Assembly (NCBI GenBank): GCA_030017655.1
Contig: JASEIM010000005.1
Location: 32,063-56,062 of the forward strand
DNA: 24,000 nucleotides
Origin: Methanobacterium sp.
GTDB lineage: Archaea; Methanobacteriota; Methanobacteria; Methanobacteriales; Methanobacteriaceae
Reading direction: 5' to 3'
Made by a program: the position numbers and the translations under genes. Every line of letters starts with the position of its first letter. Within the stretch, counting starts at the first letter, position 1. The notes under the pieces were generated by a model, which ran no database searches, had not been told where the DNA came from, and saw nothing but the letters and a program-made list of their open reading frames with translations. Positions 3,019-13,937 of the stretch are shown one piece after another.

Positions 3019-3067
3019 CTATTTCACCTTGTAATACTATATGTATTTTTAATATTGTTTTTATTGT

Positions 3068-3085
3068 ATATAACTATAGTTATAT
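3068..3085. promoter_or_regulatory. Operator-like palindrome ATATAAC-TATA-GTTATAT in the cysK promoter region
   Basis: Perfect copy. Its centre is about 58 nt upstream of the cysK ATG, where an archaeal TATA/BRE would be expected for a short leader. Confidence 0.5.
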
Positions 3086-3124
3086 AACATTGTTATAAGA
3101 CAAATTTTCTGAGAATGCTCAAAG

Positions 3125-4574: not shown

Positions 4575-6950
4575 CTAAATGTCCTTAGAAGAAGCCTTAT
4601 ATAAAACAGGTTCAAGTTTATCAAGAGCCTTACTTACCTGCTTGTCGAATTCTACAAGTTTAGATGCCAATCCCCTAAAGTATGGGGCATAAACCTTATA
4701 ATACATTAATCTATCCGGATCTATACTATTTTTTAGAATTTCAGACCTGATTTCTCCCACTTTTTCTTGTATAGCAGGATACATTATATCATCAGGATAT
4801 TCACCTAAAAATATACCATCTGCACCATTTTCAAATGCATACAAAATATGTTTTGGCATTAAACGATTTATCGATGGTATTCTAATGATTCTAACTGATT
4901 CTGGATAGGATATTCTATTTATTCCAATATTATCGGCGGCCACATAACCAATATAATCTACAAAAGCAAGAATTCTTCTTTCACCATCTTTTTTGTCCTT
5001 TAGCATGCCTGAAATCATTGCAAATATTTGACTATCTGTTTGGCCCATTACTTCAACTGCTTCATTCTTACATTTTGAAATACATATTCCACAACCAGTG
5101 CAGGCAATAGGATCAACGGATATACGTTCATCATGCATATAAATAGCCTTATATTTACATGCTTTCACGCATTCGCCGCACATTTCACATTTATAATGAT
5201 CAACTACGGCGATTGTAGGTTCTATCTCTAATCCGCCATTCATTATCTCCGAAACTTTAGATGCAGCTGCATTTGCCTGAGACACACTATCTGTAATATC
5301 TTTTGGGCCCTGTGCAGTTCCACAAACATAAATTCCTTCAACATCAGTGGTTACCGGTTTTATCTTTGGATGTTTCTCTTTTACGAACAAATCTTCAGTA
5401 AGACCCACATTTAATTTCTCTGCAACTTTTAATGTTCCTTCCGATGGTTCCATTGCCTCTGATAAAACAACCATATCAGTTTCAATCTCTACTTGTTCAC
5501 CGCGAAGAGTGTCTTCAACTCTTACAACTAGATTATCACCGATCTTTGCTATATCTCCAGGACGCCCTCTTATCAGTTTAATTTCCTTAGATTGTACATG
5601 TCTGAAGTAATTTTCGTACATTCCAGGGGTTCTCATGTCTGTATAACAGATGATTATTTCAGTATCAGGATAATAGCGCCGGATAAAGTTTGCATGCTTT
5701 AACGCAACCATGCAGCAGACTTTTGAACAATATCTTTTTCCTTCAGGTTTTTCATCCCTGGAACCAGCACATTGAACCATTACCACTCTTCTTGGAATTT
5801 TACCATCTGATGGTTTGAGCAGTTTACCATTAGTAGGCCCATTAACGCCCATTATCCTTGCAAGCTCCATTTGAGTTATAACATCTTCATACCTTTCATA
5901 TCCATATTCTGGACGTTTTTTAAGGTCAAATCCTTTATGTCCTGTTGCTATAACTACTGATCCTACATTAAGAGGTATGATTTCACCTTTCATTTTAAGA
6001 TTAATAGCTCTCATTGTACAGACTTTCTGACATTTTCCACATTTAATACAATGTTTTTCATCAATCGTATAAACATCTGGAACTGATTGAGGAAATGGCT
6101 TATAAATCGCCTTTCTTAACATCAATTTTTCATTCCATTCATTAGGAACATCGACAGGACAAACTTCAGCACAGTTACCGCATGCTATACATTTATCTTC
6201 ATCAACAAAACTTGGTTTTCTTTCAACAAGCAAACTGAAGTTTCCAGCTTTTCTTTGGGAGGATTTAAGCTCTGCATTAGTGATTATAGTGATATTTTTA
6301 TGCTGGACGGCTTCATTTATCAGCGGATTAAAAAGACATAATGCACATTCTTCTGCAAGCTTTTCTGGGGAAAAAACCTTACCGATTTTTATCATGTTTC
6401 CCCCAACAGTTGGCTTTTCTTCAATTATGTGGACTTTAATACCCTGTTTTGCCAGTGAAAGCGCTGCAGTTATTCCAGATATTCCTCCACCAATTACAGC
6501 TGCGCTTTTTTTTGTTTTTCTAACTATTGCATCCAGAGGTCTGGCATACTGGACCCTTTCAATGGCCGCATTTGTAAGGGATATTGCCTTTTCTGTTGCC
6601 TTATCCACGTCTGAATGCACCCATGAACACTGTTCCCTTATATTTGCCATCTCAAGCAGATATGGATTTAAGGGGGCAACATGATTTCTAAAGGTTTTTT
6701 CGTGGGTAATTGGTGAACATGCTGCAATTACCACCCTATCTAATTCTTCCTCAAGTATAATGTCCCTTATATTCTTCTGACACTTTATAGAGCAAAGATT
6801 TTCAAATTCTTTCACCACTTTAGCATCTATTGAGGATTTAAGCCTCCCAATATCTACAGTGTCAGAAATGTTTCCCCCACATTTACATAGAAAAACTCCT
6901 ATATCAATGCTGCTTTTTGGAGCGTATCTTGAAAAATGACCGTTATTCAA
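4575..6950 (-). CDS. hdrA: Heterodisulfide reductase subunit A-like flavo-iron-sulfur protein fused to a C-terminal MvhD-like domain (HdrA2-type architecture)
   Basis: N-terminal HdrA cluster motif 'IGVFLCKCGGNIS...VVIAACSP...NIREQCSWVH'. FAD fold 'AAVIGGGISGITAALSLAKQG'. Inserted 2x[4Fe-4S] ferredoxin 'CIACGNCAEVCPV...CIKCGKCQKVC'. 'VQCAGSRD...YCSKVCCMVALKHA'. C-terminal ferredoxin 'CEMCGECVKAC...CTGCGICISKC'. Then the MvhD/FlpD-like 'ILAFVDYIGYVAADNIGINRISYPESVRIIRIPS...FENGADGIFLGEYPDD'. Start is TTG at 6950 with a GAGGT RBS 6 nt upstream. Confidence 0.85.
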   Translation of the reverse strand: MNNGHFSRYAPKSSIDIGVFLCKCGGNISDTVDIGRLKSSIDAKVVKEFENLCSIKCQKNIRDIILEEELDRVVIAACSPITHEKTFRNHVAPLNPYLLEMANIREQCSWVHSDVDKATEKAISLTNAAIERVQYARPLDAIVRKTKKSAAVIGGGISGITAALSLAKQGIKVHIIEEKPTVGGNMIKIGKVFSPEKLAEECALCLFNPLINEAVQHKNITIITNAELKSSQRKAGNFSLLVERKPSFVDEDKCIACGNCAEVCPVDVPNEWNEKLMLRKAIYKPFPQSVPDVYTIDEKHCIKCGKCQKVCTMRAINLKMKGEIIPLNVGSVVIATGHKGFDLKKRPEYGYERYEDVITQMELARIMGVNGPTNGKLLKPSDGKIPRRVVMVQCAGSRDEKPEGKRYCSKVCCMVALKHANFIRRYYPDTEIIICYTDMRTPGMYENYFRHVQSKEIKLIRGRPGDIAKIGDNLVVRVEDTLRGEQVEIETDMVVLSEAMEPSEGTLKVAEKLNVGLTEDLFVKEKHPKIKPVTTDVEGIYVCGTAQGPKDITDSVSQANAAASKVSEIMNGGLEIEPTIAVVDHYKCEMCGECVKACKYKAIYMHDERISVDPIACTGCGICISKCKNEAVEVMGQTDSQIFAMISGMLKDKKDGERRILAFVDYIGYVAADNIGINRISYPESVRIIRIPSINRLMPKHILYAFENGADGIFLGEYPDDIMYPAIQEKVGEIRSEILKNSIDPDRLMYYKVYAPYFRGLASKLVEFDKQVSKALDKLEPVLYKASSKDI

Positions 6951-6959
6951 TTTTATACC

Positions 6960-7907
6960 TCATAAACATGGATTAATCTGCTTTATTTCCTTTAAAATTC
7001 GTTCTACAGGAACTGTATGTGTTTGAACTCCTACAACAGTGTAAGGGTCAGCTCCAAGTGCAAGAGCCAAAAATTGAGAAATATTAAGGCATATAATATT
7101 AAATTCTACACCTAATGATTTTCCAATTACTTTTTGATTTCTGTCAAACTGCAGCTGGCAGTTAGGACACATTAGAAGAAGAATATCAACCTCATTCTCC
7201 TTTAAACTTAAAAGTTTTTCGGCAGTTATAGAAAATGATAACTCTTTATTCATATAACGCTGCCTGAAACCGTTACCACACGTACTGGTTTTACGATCAT
7301 ACCAGTCTACGGTTTCCACGCCACATGCTTTAGCAAGAGTTTCTAAAACCATTGGATCTCTTTCATTTCCAATTGTATCTTTTTGATGAACTTTACAGTA
7401 GTGACATGCATGATGTGCAGCCACTTTAAAGCTAGATAAATCTACTTCCACAAGATCCTGAATTTCATCTACCTTTTTATAAAGAATTTCAGTTGTATGG
7501 AATATATTATCCCTTGAATCTATATTTTCCAAATTATATTTTAAATCAGAAAGCCCTGAATCTTCAAATATTTTGTTTACGCTATTTCTAATATGATCCT
7601 TTTTATTGAGGATATTTGCTGATTTTTTTAGTATTGCATAACAGGTAGCGCACAATGTAGCAATATTTTCATGTCCTTCTTCTCTTGCAATTCCAAAATT
7701 TCTTGCTGATAGTGCAGTGGTTGAAAATTGGTCAAAAAGATCGGCATAATGCCCTAAACCAGTACAGCATGATTGTCTTTCGCTTATACTATATTCAATT
7801 CCCAGTTTATCAAATAGAAACTTTGTTGAGGATTCTACACCCGGATACTCAACATTTACAAGACAGCTTTTGAAGAGTAAAATCTTTTTATCTGGTATTT
7901 TCTTCAT
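6960..7907 (-). CDS. hdrB: Heterodisulfide reductase subunit B-like protein (two CCG domains, the second non-canonical)
   Basis: The N-terminal CCG motif is complete: C15-x31-C47C48-x37-C86-x2-C89. The C-terminal motif reads C171-x37-T209-C210-x36-C247-x2-C250, with an extra C168. It overlaps the hdrC stop by 20 nt and ends 9 nt before the hdrA start. Confidence 0.8.
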   Translation of the reverse strand: MKKIPDKKILLFKSCLVNVEYPGVESSTKFLFDKLGIEYSISERQSCCTGLGHYADLFDQFSTTALSARNFGIAREEGHENIATLCATCYAILKKSANILNKKDHIRNSVNKIFEDSGLSDLKYNLENIDSRDNIFHTTEILYKKVDEIQDLVEVDLSSFKVAAHHACHYCKVHQKDTIGNERDPMVLETLAKACGVETVDWYDRKTSTCGNGFRQRYMNKELSFSITAEKLLSLKENEVDILLLMCPNCQLQFDRNQKVIGKSLGVEFNIICLNISQFLALALGADPYTVVGVQTHTVPVERILKEIKQINPCL

Positions 7908-8511
7908 TTTTACATCGCCTTACCCTTTCTAGTCTTTTAGTAAACCCTGTCTTCTCCAAAATTTTGTTGATGTCACTTACATCTTTTTCTGCTAATAACA
8001 GGGATCCAAGACCCAGTTTTTCCCTTATATTATCCAGGTTAACCTTTAATTCAAGCCATTCCTTTCCATAATCCTTCAATAGATCCTCAGAAAAGTCATC
8101 AGGAATTGTTCCAAGTCCAAATTCAAGGAAATAATCACCATATGCCGAAAAAGGGGCTATTTTAGGTTTTCCTCTTCCATGGTCAATTGCTTTTTGTCTT
8201 AAAATTTGATTTAATTCACATGGACTGTTATTTACCGGGCATACGCTGTGACAGGTGTAACAGTAAAAACAATTCCAGATTATATCATCTGTAATTAAAT
8301 TTTCATCTTTATCCAGTACTCTTTTAACTATTTCTCTTGGATCGTAGTCTGTGTGTCTTGCTGCTGGACATACTGATGTACACATTCCACACTGAATACA
8401 TTTAAGAAGTCCGAGATTTTCTGACGCTTTTAAGTCTTTAATAATGCTTTCTACAAGTTCAAAGGTATTTTCACCTATTTTAAGAGTATTCATCTCTATT
8501 TTACCTCGCAT
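7888..8511 (-). CDS. hdrC: Heterodisulfide reductase subunit C-like 2x[4Fe-4S] ferredoxin
   Basis: 'CIQCGMCTSVCPAA' and 'CFYCYTCHSVCPV' cluster motifs in an HdrC-sized protein directly upstream of hdrB. An alternative start at the second ATG (8493, 'MNTLKIG') has a GAGGT RBS 9 nt upstream and may be the true start. Confidence 0.8.
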   Translation of the reverse strand: MRGKIEMNTLKIGENTFELVESIIKDLKASENLGLLKCIQCGMCTSVCPAARHTDYDPREIVKRVLDKDENLITDDIIWNCFYCYTCHSVCPVNNSPCELNQILRQKAIDHGRGKPKIAPFSAYGDYFLEFGLGTIPDDFSEDLLKDYGKEWLELKVNLDNIREKLGLGSLLLAEKDVSDINKILEKTGFTKRLERVRRCKNEENTR

Positions 8512-8567
8512 GTAACTGTGACATTATAAAATTGAAAATTTGATCTTATTATAATAGCCCCTTTAAG

Positions 8568-8575
8568 TATATAAA
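8568..8575 (-). promoter_or_regulatory. Candidate TATA box (TTTATATA on the minus strand) for the hdrCBA operon
   Basis: Matches the archaeal TATA consensus and lies 57 nt upstream of the ATG at 8511. AT-rich context, so specificity is low. Confidence 0.3.
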
Positions 8576-8645
8576 TTAAAAACAAAAATCCAAATAAGGG
8601 TCTGTTTAGCCTTTAACATATCATATATCTATAATTACAATTGTT

Positions 8646-8663
8646 ATATAACAATAGTTATAT
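8646..8663. promoter_or_regulatory. Operator-like palindrome ATATAAC-AATA-GTTATAT upstream of hdrC, overlapping a 16-bp perfect palindrome ATTGTTATATAACAAT (8640-8655)
   Basis: Perfect copy of the motif seen at 1144 and 3068. Located in the 222-bp intergenic region upstream of hdrC, about 143 nt from the ATG at 8511. Confidence 0.45.
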
Positions 8664-8733
8664 ATACTTTGCCTTTAAAAGTTTTTCATTAACTTAAATC
8701 TAACAATTTAAAAAATAATAGAAATCCTAAGTA

Positions 8734-9546
8734 TCATTTGCTTTTTTTAATTATCTCTTTTAATTCATTAATTTCTGTCAGCATTTCCTGGCGCATATTT
8801 TCCATTTGAGATTTCATTTCTTCCAATGTTTTGTCAGATTCCTCTTTAGTTTCTTTTTCAATCATAATAGAAGCCAATGAAGCCGTTAATAAACTCATAA
8901 AAAATACACCTGCAATCATTATAATTGCTCCAGTAATTCTACCTCCAACTGAATCTGGACTAATATCCCCATAACCTACAGTGGTAATTGTAACTATAAC
9001 ATACCATAAAGCATCATCAAAGCTGTCAACACTGCCATTTGAGCCATGTTCAAGTAAAAAGAATGATACTGTTCCTGCTGCAAAAATAAATAAAAATATG
9101 ACTGCACCATGAACAATTTGTGTTTTTCGAAGGAAATCCAGAATGTTTTTTTGACCTTTTCTAATAAGTACAAAAACCCTTGCAAGTCTTGCTAATCTCA
9201 TGATCCTTATAAATCTAATAAGGCCTATATAATCAGAAGCAATTACAGCAAGGAAATCTACAGGTACCATAGCAACCATATCAACCCAATTTTTGCGTAT
9301 ATACTTTAATTTACTCTTTTCATTTCGTATTTTAATCATGAACTCAAAAAATAATATAATACAAACAAAAAGGTCAAATTCTATTATTAGATTGCGTATA
9401 GACTGAGGCATGTCAATAAATGTCATTAAAATAATTAAAAACAGATCAGTTATAATCAGGACGATTATAATTGCCTCTATACTCTGCTTAACTTTGTCAT
9501 CAACAGTATCTATGAACTTTAAATGATGCTTAATTTTTTGATTCAT
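8734..9546 (-). CDS. Voltage-gated (6-TM, Kv/KvAP-like) potassium channel
   Basis: S4-like helix with Arg/Lys at every third position ('RFIRIMRLARLARVFVLIRK'). K+ selectivity filter 'TTVGYGD'. Multiple hydrophobic helices and a C-terminal charged coiled-coil-like tail. Confidence 0.85.
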   Translation of the reverse strand: MNQKIKHHLKFIDTVDDKVKQSIEAIIIVLIITDLFLIILMTFIDMPQSIRNLIIEFDLFVCIILFFEFMIKIRNEKSKLKYIRKNWVDMVAMVPVDFLAVIASDYIGLIRFIRIMRLARLARVFVLIRKGQKNILDFLRKTQIVHGAVIFLFIFAAGTVSFFLLEHGSNGSVDSFDDALWYVIVTITTVGYGDISPDSVGGRITGAIIMIAGVFFMSLLTASLASIMIEKETKEESDKTLEEMKSQMENMRQEMLTEINELKEIIKKSK

Positions 9547-9581
9547 ATAATCAGTATATTTTTATTAATTAAAAAATAACA

Positions 9582-10784
9582 TTATTTACTTTTTTCTCTT
9601 GCAAAAAGGCACTCTGCAGTTTCAATCAATTTTTTATCATCATTTTCCGCTGCATTTTTAATATTTCTTATAACATCAGAGAATATTTTATCAACAACTA
9701 CATTTGTAAGGTCATCAATGATTTTCTCTTTACCGTTCATGTCTCCAAGCATTCTAACTGCCTTTTCAGTTTCCTGTACCCTTATTTTCTCAGCATTTTG
9801 CCTTATATCAGAAATAAGAGATTCGACTTCAAGATGCTTCAATGATTTTTTTAAAAGTAACAATTCTTCCTCAATGATTTTTTCAGCTTCTTTAGCTTCA
9901 GATTCTCTCATTTTCCTATTTTTATCGGCTATACCCCTTAAATCATCTATATTAAATAATTTAATTCCTAATTCCTTAACATTTTCCTCAATATCCCTTG
10001 GATTTGCAATATCCACCATCACCATCTTATTACATTTTTGGGGGGAAACTGACTTCTTCACTTTTTCATAGGTTAAAATGTGGTGAGGCGCACCTGTAGC
10101 ACTTATTATGACGTCTGCATCAGCCATAGCTTCATCGAGCCTGTCAAAATGTATTGCAGACCCTCCAAGTTCTCTTGCAAGACATGTTGCCCTATCATAT
10201 GTTCTGTTCGCTACAACTATTGCTTTAAGGTGTTTTTCAACCAGTGCTTTTGCAACGAGAGTTCCCATTTTTCCCGCACCTATCACAAGGACTTTTTTGC
10301 ATTTTAAATCCCCATGTACTGATTCTGCAAGTTCAACAGCAGCAGAACCTATAGAAATAGATCCTTTATTAATATTTGTCCTTTTTCTTACAGATTGACC
10401 AACATGAATGGCTTTTGTAAAAACGGTTTTTAAAATATCCCCAGCATATCCTTCAGATAAACTTTTTTTCCGAGCATCCTTTATCTGCCCCAATATTTGA
10501 TCTTCACCTATTATCATGGATTCTAATCCGCAAGAAAGCCTTAAAAGATGTCTAAGTGCATCGTCGTCAGTTTCTACTATAAAATTCTCAATATTAAAAT
10601 CATCAAGATTACAATCATTCAAAATTAGATATAATTCAGACCGATTACATGTCTTTATCTCCAGATATTCCTGAATATGGTGATTATTAGAAATATCTTC
10701 AAATAATTTGTCCATTTCATGAGTGGACTTTTCTATTTTGCTGATATCGGCCGTAGTATGATCGATTCTGATATTTAGAATCAC
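9582..10784 (-). CDS. hemA: Glutamyl-tRNA reductase
   Basis: '[10 protein letters not shown]' (catalytic Cys motif TCNR), '[15 protein letters not shown]', and the NADPH fold '[18 protein letters not shown]'. The start is GTG at 10784 (the sequence reads GTGATTCTAAAT) with a GGGG RBS upstream. Confidence 0.92.
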
Positions 10785-10842
10785 ATTATCCCCTCAAATA
10801 TTATATAGAGACTCCAAAAACCAGGAATTTACAGCGAAAAAT

Positions 10843-11457
10843 CTAAAGATCTAATTTTTGTCTGACATGCTTTTTGGCATCCTCAATGTTTCCCGCTTTT
10901 ATATATTCCCCTATGATTTCATCATTTAGAACTTCATATAGATAAGTTCTACGTTTTTTTTGATCTTCAATTTTTTCTTTTAAAATATTCCTCGTAAAAT
11001 CCTGAATTTCCAGCTGCATGATATCTTCAAGAGTTATTATCTTTTGTATCCTTTTCCGTAACTCTTTTGCCATAAGAGGGCTCTTTCCACCTGTAAAAAT
11101 GGATATTTGGACATCCCCTATAGAAAATGACGATGGAACAATCAGATTACCATTATCAGGAAAATCTGCCCGATTCAGAAGTTTATCTTTAGCAAGCTCA
11201 GCAACATGATCATTCAATTCCTGGTTATTTGTAGCCACTATCACAATATCTGACCAATCTACCCATTTTTTAACTTCCTCTTGAGGCTTAGAAATTACTC
11301 CAAGCTCAATAAGATCTTTTGAAATATTTCTTCCAATTATTACAACATTTGCTCCGGCTTCTGCAAATCTTCTGGCCCTTCTATCTCCAACTTCCCCTGC
11401 ACCCACAATTAAAACATTCTTATTATTCATTTGCAGGATTAGAAGTGTCCAGCCCAT
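10843..11457 (-). CDS. sirC: Precorrin-2 dehydrogenase / sirohydrochlorin-forming siroheme synthase N-terminal-domain homologue
   Basis: '[30 protein letters not shown]' Rossmann fold and '[20 protein letters not shown]' (the family motif 'istgGkSP.la..lr'). Adjacent to hemA. GGAG RBS 7 nt upstream of the ATG at 11457. Confidence 0.8.
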
Positions 11458-11566
11458 TTTAAAGCTCCATTGTTTATAAATTATTGAAATACTTGTTATT
11501 AAAAATATAATGATTTTAAAATATAAAAATAAAGCTAATAATAGCTTTTATATTGATTTATGAAAT

Positions 11567-12046
<480 letters not shown>

Positions 12047-12050
12047 TTTA

Positions 12051-12289
12051 TTCCTCCAAAAAATCTTTGATTTTTTGTGGTCCCAAAACCTTTGGTTTTG
12101 AAGACCTCCAAATTTTTCAAAATTGAAAATTTTGAACCGACAAAAACTTCGTTTTTGTCAGTTCGATTTGGGTTTCGAAAAAATCTGTCAAAATTCAGAG
12201 AATTTTGACGCACGAGAAACTGATTTTCTCTGCCCCAAACATGAAATGTTCGAAGGCAACAAAAATCAAAGATTTTTTTTATGCTTCGA
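12051..12289. other. TA-dinucleotide-free, palindrome-dense element (candidate structured leader, intercistronic RNA or ncRNA)
   Basis: I found no TA between 12051 and 12279 by base-by-base reading. Perfect hairpins/palindromes: 12058-12076 (8 bp, loop TTT), 12084-12100 (7 bp, TTT), 12134-12164 (13 bp with one mismatch, loop TTC), 12187-12209 (10 bp, AGA), 12214-12230 (6 bp), 12238-12250 (5 bp, GAA), and 12250-12289 (outer 6 bp enclosing 12261-12277, 7 bp, loop AAA). Confidence 0.5.
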
Positions 12290-12341
12290 TTTTTCTCAAC
12301 TCCGAATTACTTAAATAACTGTAAATGACTGAAGATGAGTC

Positions 12342-13937
12342 TTATTCTTCAGTAAGCATCTTTTTTTTCTCTGTAGGTGTGAGATCTTCTACTATAGACT
12401 CTGGATCTCCTTCTTTTAAGATTTTCCCCCCTCTCATAAGGGCTGCCCTATCACAAACATCAAGTACAAAATCCATGTCATGTGATATTATAAGGAAAGT
12501 CTGGTTTAATTCGTCTCTCGCCTTTCTTATGGAATCTGTGACCTGGACTCTTGTTATTGGGTCCATTGTTCCTGTAGGTTCATCAAGAATTACTATATTT
12601 GGCTCTTTAATTAGAACCTGAGCTAAAGCTACTCTATGACGTTCTCCACCACTTAGTTCATCAGGATATTTAGTTAAAAGACTTTCAGCATATTCTTCAT
12701 CAAAACCAACCGCTCTAAGTACGTATATTGCTTTCATTTTTGCAAATTCTGCAGGCAATTCTAAACTTATTGCCTCAGTTAAATTTCCCAGAACAGTTCT
12801 ATGAGGATAAAGACTGTATTCTTGATGAAGAATGCCTAAATAAGGCTTAATTCTTCCTCTTCCAAACGGACCGGATTCTGTCATATCCACCCAATCATCC
12901 CCAAGTTTTACAACTATATCACCAGTACTTGGTTCTGTTAATCCATAAAGAATTCTTGAAAGAGTTGTTTTACCAGCTCCACTTAAACCAACAATACCAA
13001 AAATCTCTCCTTCATCAACTAAAAGGTCTATGCCATCCACAGCTTTCACTACACCCCGTTCTATGGAGTAATAATGCTTTTTGACATTGTTCATCTTGAT
13101 CATTGGCCCTCCTGTCTGATAATCATTTCTTTTTTCAGGAAGAGGTACCTGATCTAAGAATCTTTTTACAACAGATTCTGGATCTCCTTCATCAATAACT
13201 TCGCCTTTTTCTAACCAAATTACATAATCTGAAAGTTTTCTCATAACTTCTGGCCAGTGAGAAGTAATGATCATTGTTGTGCCTTTTTCTTTTACACCTT
13301 CTAGCAGTGCCTGATGTATAAGCTCTGCAGTTTTAGGATCAAGAGTACCCGTAGGTTCATCTGCTAAAAAAATCATAGGTTCTTTTGCTATTTGTCTTGC
13401 TAGAACCACCCTTTGCTTTTCCCCACCACTCAAATCTCTTGCAATGTGAGTTATCCTATGGGTCATCTGGGTCATTTCAAGAAGATCTATAGCCATATAC
13501 ATACTTTCTTCTTCATCATGATGGTCAATTGACTTTAAAACGTTGTCAATTACGCTGTCATCTTCATAGAGGGCAAATGTCCGTTGAAGCATGATAGAAA
13601 TCCTTCTTCTAATTGCAGCAAATGTTTTTCTATCTGTATTCCAGAGATCAACACGTTTTGCTTCGAATTCCCCCCCACATGCACATTTCTGTCCTACTTT
13701 TGATGGGGCGTCAACTAAAACACATTCTGGACATATTGCAATATTATAAATTACTTTACCATTATCTGGCTTGTATTCCTTCATTCCACGGAGCATATTT
13801 ATTAGTACGGATTTCCCAGCGCCGCTTCTACCTAAAATACCAAGTACACTGCCTTCATTTATGGTTATATTCAAATTTTTTAAAACAGCTACGTCATTAA
13901 ATGTTTTAGTGACATTTTCTAATTCTATAAAAGACAT
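12342..13937 (-). CDS. atwA: Methyl-coenzyme M reductase system component A2 (tandem ABC ATPase)
   Basis: Two ABC nucleotide-binding domains with Walker A 'GRSGAGKS' and 'GLSGAGKT', signatures 'LSGGEKQRV' and 'LSGGERHRV', and Walker B 'IFLADEPTG' and 'IVILDEPTG'. A Cys-rich insert '[24 protein letters not shown]' in NBD1 is typical of A2. RBS GGGTGA lies upstream of the ATG at 13937. Confidence 0.88.

Follow-up and report, generated by a model that had tools for sequence, protein, structure and literature searches.

The spacer between atwA and the methanogenesis marker protein 9 gene (marker-9) in a Methanobacterium genome is most probably a mosaic array of miniature palindromic insertion units, drawn from a dispersed family of one Methanobacterium subclade and resembling bacterial REP/BIME repeats; we put the probability of this reading at roughly 0.7. 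Throughout, the window is the whole 24,000-nt stretch of DNA that was analysed. Among the roles first proposed for the spacer, a small mobile or repeated element is the one borne out: the further copies that were to be sought in relatives are present, family units occupying at least 12 further intergenic sites of related genomes in addition to a second site in the same species, the junction exists in empty and filled states, and some strains have a 52-nt unit that others lack. A regulatory leader, an RNA stability element and a protein-binding array, also proposed, fail the refutation test that was set with them, as the spacer is unconserved, its unit content differs between close relatives, its divergence is approximately neutral and its sense-strand stem mismatches show no G·U bias. 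To our knowledge, REP-like and miniature elements, the subject of much work in bacteria, are essentially uncharacterised in methanogens. A review reports no apparent MITEs in Methanobacterium thermoautotrophicum (PMC10969869), the sole archaeal REP survey that we found is a generic hairpin count (PMC12306157), and full-text literature searches returned no description of this hairpin family. The family targets a ribosome-binding site that is repaired on insertion, is polymorphic and sits inside the methyl-coenzyme M reductase activation operon, and therefore offers a workable case for studying the spread of archaeal elements and their effects on methanogenesis gene expression.

Composition and folding of the atwA/marker-9 spacer

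The 295-nt spacer does lie between atwA (methyl-coenzyme M reductase system component A2, 531 aa) and marker-9 (159 aa), as originally described, and only the direction needs amending: atwA and marker-9 are minus-strand genes, and transcription therefore passes from right to left through atwA, the spacer and marker-9 (Table 1). Marker-9 comes after atwA in all 80 Methanobacteriaceae loci examined. Because the two genes abut in most species, read-through of marker-9 from atwA is plausible, and the array, which cannot contain a TATA box, is most likely co-transcribed in the atwA/marker-9 mRNA. The nearest species representatives are UBA44 (marker-9 identity 96%) and M. oryzae (90%), and a sister strain with 99.5% nucleotide identity is available as a 209-kb metagenome contig (JGI 3300002733 codie8draft_1000348). 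Window positions 6944–11857 are just 94.2% identical to the sister-strain contig, against 99.5% over the remaining window, which suggests a recombination tract; the L215 contig ends near window position 11857.

TA dinucleotides occur at position 12049, next at 12280 after a gap of 231 nt, and then at 12308, in agreement with the initial count of none from 12051 to 12279 and just one up to 12307. Within the window the runner-up TA-free gap measures 102 nt; among 80 related Methanobacteriaceae genomes (1.30 Mb examined) no TA-free run exceeds 146 nt. The window averages 0.090 TA per nt and its remaining intergenic spacers, correctly called TA-rich, 0.166 per nt at a GC content of 0.18; from the window's own TA rate, about 7e-7 gaps of 231 nt are expected per window. 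None of 200,000 mononucleotide shuffles of positions 12051–12289 had one TA or fewer, the minimum being 12. The enrichment noted for CG and TCGA also holds, with CG observed/expected at 1.19 in the spacer versus 0.54 in the window, four TCGA, two TTCGAA and, as counted before, five copies of TTTTGA and TCAAAA together. Two long ORFs in the spacer had been dismissed as products of the missing TAA and TAG; both exist, and the explanation is correct. Coding potential was rejected for the spacer, neither ORF matching a protein family in profile searches and the minus-strand frame being broken by a 52-nt strain indel. Avoidance of stop codons as the reason for TA loss is weakened because TGA is enriched in the array, with seven copies on the plus strand and five on the minus strand.

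The description of the spacer as consecutive short palindromes is likewise accurate: a hairpin scan finds about six perfect hairpins with stems of at least 7 bp, accompanied by weaker ones (Table 1), and the window's other 23.7 kb holds only about a dozen comparable perfect hairpins. The first and last units, reported earlier as mutual reverse complements, form an 18-nt perfect inverted repeat in which the outermost unit at 12250–12289 is the partner of 12058–12075. Sense and antisense folds of the spacer region score z = −7.4 and −6.4 against shuffles. The array carries T5, T6, T5 and T6 tracts on its sense strand, and its A/T runs recur every 12–13 and about 25 nt.

Table 1. Coordinates of features in the window and of family members elsewhere (SD, Shine–Dalgarno sequence; L numbers are our handles for the loci and contigs compared)
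Feature	Position	Strand	Details
atwA, upstream operon gene	12342–13937	−	TIGR03269, 894 bits, full length
Remnant of original short spacer	12300–12341	−	sense ...ACAGTTATTTAAGTAATTCGGAG; aligns with L016 empty site ACAGTTATTTAAGTTAATTTGGAGGAATAAAatg
Element/array 1	12105–12299	−	TTGAGAAAAATC ... AAAAATTTGGAGG (sense); left-end module, nested hairpins, terminal TTTGGAGG at 12112–12105
Element 2, 52-nt basic unit	12053–12104	−	hairpin A, hairpin B and TTTGGAGG
Methanogenesis marker protein 9 gene	11567–12046	−	TIGR03277, 187 bits
TA-free stretch	12051–12279	.	from TA positions
Perfect stems, at least 7 bp, loops 3–5 nt	12057–12077, 12084–12100, 12116–12136, 12139–12159 (extended 12134–12164), 12187–12209, 12261–12277		hairpin scan
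Weaker hairpins	12214–12230, 12238–12250
Longest hairpin	12134–12164	.	GAACyGACAAAAAC-GAA-GTTTTTGTCrGTTC; sense C-GAA-G triloop
Hairpin with inverted loop	12187–12209	.	GTCAAAATTC-NNN-GAATTTTGAC; 3-nt loop 12197–12199 inverted among strains
Outer imperfect stem	12250–12289	.	TCGAAG...CTTCGA around AAAAATC-AAA-GATTTTT (12261–12277)
Family sites	L013:166–237, L013:2082–2128
Family site	marker-9/cysG spacer		L015, L022, L018, L013
Family site	L017:7052–7166		not present in L019, L012, L014
Family sites	L010:15185, L011:18581; L015:16131, L020:14939
Family sites	L020:2294, L012:19776, L019:19202, L027:19417
Opposite-polarity module	L013:10482–10520, L015:10658–10692, L022:2239–2273, L010:15230–15262, L011:18625–18660, L165 ~6715–6750
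High-GC contigs with CAAAAATCNNNGATTTTTG, among the matches listed	L113, L181, L102, L205, L176; L202		GC 0.55–0.65; GC 0.49 (L202)

Filled and empty junctions

Comparison across species shows that the reconstructed ancestral atwA/marker-9 junction was tight, with a gap of 1–5 nt in 47 of 77 measurable related species. Long spacers packed with hairpins (GC 0.26–0.36) occur only in the window's subclade (L009, L010 from M. oryzae DSM 11106, L014, L017, L018 and L020, with a 59-nt mini version in L019), where the array is kept at the junction in 7 of 15 species and empty sites have spacers of 13–114 nt. The long spacers of more distant species are plain, hairpin-free AT-rich DNA (GC 0.11–0.16). 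Filled and empty states are found at the identical position in four sublineages, with left and right ends in common. At all filled sites the insert follows directly on the marker-9 Shine–Dalgarno sequence (SD), GGAG(G), starts with TTGArGAAAAT and finishes with (A/T)TTTGGAGG. Ending in TTTGGAGG, the insert doubles the SD, and marker-9 retains a ribosome-binding site at the proper distance. The L016 empty site reads ...ACAGTTATTTAAGTTAATTTGGAGGAATAAAatg, and the filled site of the window reads ...ACAGTTATTTAAGTAATTCGGAG / TTGAGAAAAATC ... GATTTTTTGGAGG / AATAAAatg. What remains of the original short spacer ends with TTCGGAG (12306–12300; TTTGGAG in the sister strain), the left copy of the SD and target, which is predicted to be no longer functional. 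The complete left end GGAG(G)TTGArGAAAAT is also present in L009, L010, L014, L017, L018, L019, L020, L027 and L214. Junctions of TTTGGAGG with TTGAG lie inside the arrays of L009, L010 and L017 and indicate serial insertion at a regenerated target.

The window array is composed of one compound element followed by one basic unit (elements 1 and 2 in Table 1). In the sense orientation the basic unit consists of hairpin A (CAAAACC-AAA-GGTTTTG), hairpin B (CAAAAAATC-AAA-GATTTTTTG), which touches the marker-9 SD, and a terminal TTTGGAGG that holds the predicted working SD, GGAGG (12057–12053). Aligned with basic units of four other species (L009, L017, L019 and L027) from three different genomic sites, it has 73% mean column identity, and hairpin A shows compensatory changes at six stem pairs; MAFFT misaligned hairpin B. 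The longest hairpin of the array has a homologue in L009, ACGAAAAAC-GAA-GTTTTTCGT.

The same junction varies among strains. The 52-nt unit is missing in L001, L002, L003, L005 and L007 and present in the window, L004 and L209, the indel being flanked by TTTGGAGG repeats (window 12104–12053), and metagenome contigs with identical marker-9 and atwA proteins differ in their spacer allele. Digester metagenomes, JGI 3300009716 and 3300013755 among them, contain both alleles. The sense-strand loop of the hairpin at 12187–12209 is TCT in the window and L001-type contigs and AGA in L004, L209 and L213. Between the window and the sister strain, 7 of 296 spacer positions differ (2.4%), compared with 7 of 1,596 in atwA (0.44%), all synonymous, and 3 of 480 in marker-9; set against the all-synonymous atwA changes, the spacer's divergence is roughly neutral. 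Judged from these alleles, the array is recently changing and polymorphic in natural populations.

A dispersed family and its TA depletion

Copies number two arrays in 42 kb of the window's species and at least 13 sites in about 290 kb of the subclade. The second array of the window's species, at L214:13833–13990, is 14.7 kb distant and separates a sortase gene from a DHNA gene; it begins with TTTGGAGGTTGAGAAAAATC, a left end shared with the window array, and ends with TTTGAAGG. At L214:13830–13841 the sortase stop TGA (13839–13841) arises where TTTGGAGGT joins the left end of the hairpin element, TGAGAAAAATC, and the element therefore supplies or overlaps the gene end. Non-ORF DNA of the subclade contains 1.9 family-type hairpins per kb, versus 0.19 in other species. 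All arrays are intergenic and contain 6–8 units each, with stems of 7–11 bp and loops of 3–5 nt. An A-run occupies the 5′ arm in 61 hairpins and the reverse polarity is seen in 8 (p = 3e-11); triloops account for 59 of 76 loops, most commonly GAA and its complement TTC, and the closing pair is 5′C–G3′ in 46 of 76. Units recurring among sites include CAAAAATC-NNN-GATTTTTG, CAAACAC-NNN-GTGTTTG and CAAAATTC-NNN-GAATTTTG, whose loops vary freely. A module whose arms have the opposite polarity, CCTTTTTTC-NNN-GAAAAAAGG and then (n)TTGATCAAAAAA, is conserved at several unrelated sites (Table 1) and constitutes a second sequence-conserved component of the family.

Duplications flanking the inserts measure 8 nt at the window junction, where TTTGGAGG borders both the 52-nt unit and the arrays, about 25–30 nt at the L010/L011 and L015/L020 sites and about 65 nt at marker-9/cysG. 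They always take in the SD, and the long direct duplications at these three other sites extend over the ribosome-binding site, start codon and first codons. ORFs beginning at the duplicated upstream ATG span several arrays (L015:10576–10806, L022:2206–2436, L020:14909–15026 and L015:16103–16233). Those of L015 and L022 at the first site run for 75 codons to a TAA 2 nt ahead of the true ATG, with 230 nt from ATG to ATG in both despite different unit content; the L020 ORF and the second-site L015 ORF have 30 and 40 codons and stop 24 and 7 nt ahead of the true ATG. Such array-crossing ORFs could arise incidentally where stop codons are scarce, or they could point to selection for termination–reinitiation coupling.

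The family is also depleted in TA at other loci, where its arrays (2.9 kb) have a TA observed/expected ratio of 0.34 and include further long TA-free runs (L022:2228–2363, 135 nt; L020:9873–9977, 104 nt). TA rates are 0.014 per nt in stems, 0.046 in linkers and 0.10 in loops, the last equal to the genomic rate. The unit design of G/C clamp, A-run, triloop, T-run and G/C clamp would nearly bar TpA from stems and unit junctions, and we attribute the family's three-fold TA depletion to this design; in the window allele, loops and linkers would also happen to be without TA. At the family TA rate, the chance of 231 nt free of TA is only about 2e-4, which counts against unit architecture alone explaining the extreme: the architecture accounts for the direction of the anomaly and leaves part of its size over. 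That part could stem from a young and homogeneous allele, or from selection within an operon against UA or TATA-like sites. Repeat architecture largely produces the striking TA-free signal, an illustration that an extreme compositional anomaly can come from such architecture instead of function.

A metagenome scan with CAAAAATCNNNGATTTTTG listed a mixture of matches, from Methanobacterium-like arrays (L144, L165, L196 and L090) and from unrelated organisms, and is no guide to copy number. Among the matches listed, the same AT hairpin also sits among perfect GC-rich hairpins, arranged as mosaics, in unrelated contigs of high GC content (Table 1); L202 carries a tandemly repeated unit about 140 nt long that forms four hairpins (51 hairpins over 3.4 kb), and these six contigs had no Rfam match. 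Carriage by viruses was rejected, as a scan with the left-end motif gave seven matches, all chance occurrences in coding DNA.

Alternative readings, known repeat families and mechanism

The conspicuous folding of the spacer invites a reading as a selected, UA-free multi-hairpin intercistronic RNA element that would shield the atwA/marker-9 mRNA, take part in its processing or control marker-9 translation, with the SD partly sequestered by the last hairpin and UA avoidance guarding against endonucleolytic cleavage. The sense-strand z-score agrees with such a role, as do the excess of the TA-free run over the family-rate prediction, persistence of the array at the junction in the subclade, pairing of the last hairpin, CCTCAAATAT-GAA-ATATTTGGAGG, with the SD in L010, L014, L017 and L020, and a sense strand that folds 1–15 kcal/mol better than the antisense strand at this junction in all eight species or alleles. 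We nevertheless consider an RNA element unlikely: the spacer is missing in most species, its unit content is not alignable across species, strains differ by the 52-nt indel and a loop inversion at near-neutral divergence, and other sites have the same units in 3′ regions and in promoter-side spacers. Stems are nearly all perfectly Watson–Crick, and the few sense-strand mismatches (4 G·U versus 6 A·C) are uninformative to negative for RNA-level selection. Rfam searches at gathering and permissive thresholds found no family in the window and nothing of substance in 12 metagenome loci that carry similar arrays, and the window has no tRNA or tmRNA gene. A cis-regulatory leader or riboswitch would be conserved with covariation, and here most species have a gap of a few nucleotides and arrays that cannot be aligned. 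The predicted folding advantage of the sense strand keeps an RNA-level role possible, and together with persistence in 7 of the 15 species it may leave room for a selected function.

Oligo-T tracts are termination signals for archaeal RNA polymerase, and those of the array, some placed after hairpins, could instead form a stack of terminators or attenuators that uncouples marker-9 from atwA. Two terminator-like calls (12209–12187 on the minus strand and 12139–12159 on the plus strand) fit this idea, which we judge very improbable; a terminator and promoter scan of the spacer was not above shuffles (3 versus 1.6 ± 1.3) and, being of bacterial type, is weakly relevant, and the palindromic units give the antisense strand as many T5–T6 tracts. 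Marker-9 also appears to depend on read-through, having no evident promoter of its own given a TA-free array and empty-site spacers of only 13–50 nt, and the family lies upstream of start codons at other sites. Hardly any credence attaches to an array acting at the DNA level, as operators of a dimeric regulator, curved A-tract DNA or a histone-positioning signal. Palindromes and recurring TTTTGA/TCAAAA words are what such an array would offer, and A-tracts without TpA steps are a rigid or bent form of AT-rich DNA; yet the stems differ among units and species and therefore share no common recognition word, the array is dispensable in most species, and the 12–13- and ~25-nt periods in place of 10.5 nt led us to reject curved or phased A-tract DNA.

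A mosaic array of insertion units has its closest known counterparts in bacterial REP/BIME mosaics and miniature IS-derived elements, from which this SD-targeting, SD-regenerating, polymorphic archaeal family can nonetheless be told apart. With the REP/BIME sequences of enterobacteria and pseudomonads, including RAYT-mobilised REPIN doublets, it has in common short palindromic units of about 20–25 nt arranged in mosaic arrays that are clustered, extragenic yet (for this family, probably) transcribed, often within operons, dispersed over many sites and turned over quickly between relatives. REP copies typically exceed 100 per genome. REP stems are GC-rich and imperfect, whereas the stems here are AT-rich with A-run to T-run polarity and triloops; in addition, the SD-like octamer TTTGGAGG bounds the elements and the host is an archaeon. 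REP palindromes carry a conserved GTAG or CGTC tag at one end (PMC3733652). The window array lacks this tag, GTAG and CTAC being excluded by the absence of TA, and relatives have GTAG only inside loops, for example C-GTA-G. No RAYT gene appears among the called genes of L214 and L215, and no transposase or other mobilising function turned up in the sequences analysed.

The family resembles MITEs and the palindrome-associated elements derived from IS200/IS605 (PATEs) in being non-coding and small, from about 52 nt upward here, in having hairpins close to both ends and a favoured target, and in varying between occupied and precisely empty sites; its borders also carry what look like direct repeats. 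The family shares with IS200/IS605 elements hairpin A near the left end, hairpin B at the right end, insertion after GGAG(G) and exact empty sites. IS200/IS605 elements produce no target duplication, however, and the flanking duplications here range from 8 to about 65 nt, with long ones at three other sites. Candidate terminal inverted repeats are the 18-nt repeat at the window array ends and CCTCAAA...TTTGAGG at L017:7035–7185, with none clear in the basic unit. Rickettsia palindromic elements (RPEs) are also palindromic repeats that tolerate ribosome read-through, as with the ORFs spanning arrays elsewhere in the family, but RPEs are 100–150 nt long and lie in frame inside genes, whereas the present units occupy translation-initiation regions, where duplication rescues the host gene. 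The palindromic repeats of Volvox mitochondria and plastids (PMC2670323) and the repetitive hairpin-forming elements of sponge mitochondria (PMC2800124) similarly fill intergenic DNA with many different near-perfect short hairpins, probably by replication-based spread, and small loop inversions of plastid spacers resemble those seen here, in which loop flips mark hairpin-mediated template switching. These organellar repeats and inversions are good analogies for the dynamics of the family, which differs in occupying a free-living archaeal chromosome, in its defined SD-like target and in its restriction to one lineage.

Perfect stems, minimal 3-nt loops, loop flips and repeat-bounded indels point to template switching or slippage as the probable DNA-level process. 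Template switching during hairpin-prone replication, using TTTGGAGG microhomology, would let units spread and turn over as DNA; a single-strand HUH transposase (RAYT or IS200-type) could be an alternative mover. The variable flanking duplications fit no classical transposition mechanism cleanly, and because their length varies, a fixed-stagger transposase and a pure IS200-type route are disfavoured; we infer that copy-paste through template switching at SD microhomology is favoured over transposase routes. Once co-transcribed, the array would fold into stable stem-loops that may be neutral or mildly modulatory, and its T5–T6 tracts could attenuate read-through. A more ambitious proposal, which we entertain only tentatively and regard as doubtful, is that the units are archaeal miniature mobile DNA homing to the SD-like TTTGGAGG and regenerating the ribosome-binding site, with TA loss selected in elements that dwell in operons and are often translated. 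If so, array-spanning ORFs would provide termination–reinitiation coupling with ribosomes melting the hairpins, and the near-absence of TA would mean no TATA box and no TAA or TAG on either strand.

A separate palindrome, TATATAAC-N4-GTTATATA, occurs in promoter-side spacers of the window at 1144–1161, 3067–3086 and 8645–8664, and the sister contig has two more immediately beyond the left edge of the window (L215 ~13110 and ~19990). Adjacent genes include a PALP (cysteine-synthase-like) enzyme, an Hdr-like Fe–S cluster, a Cys/Met PLP enzyme and Thi4, and the palindrome may be an operator or TATA palindrome of a sulfur-related regulon.
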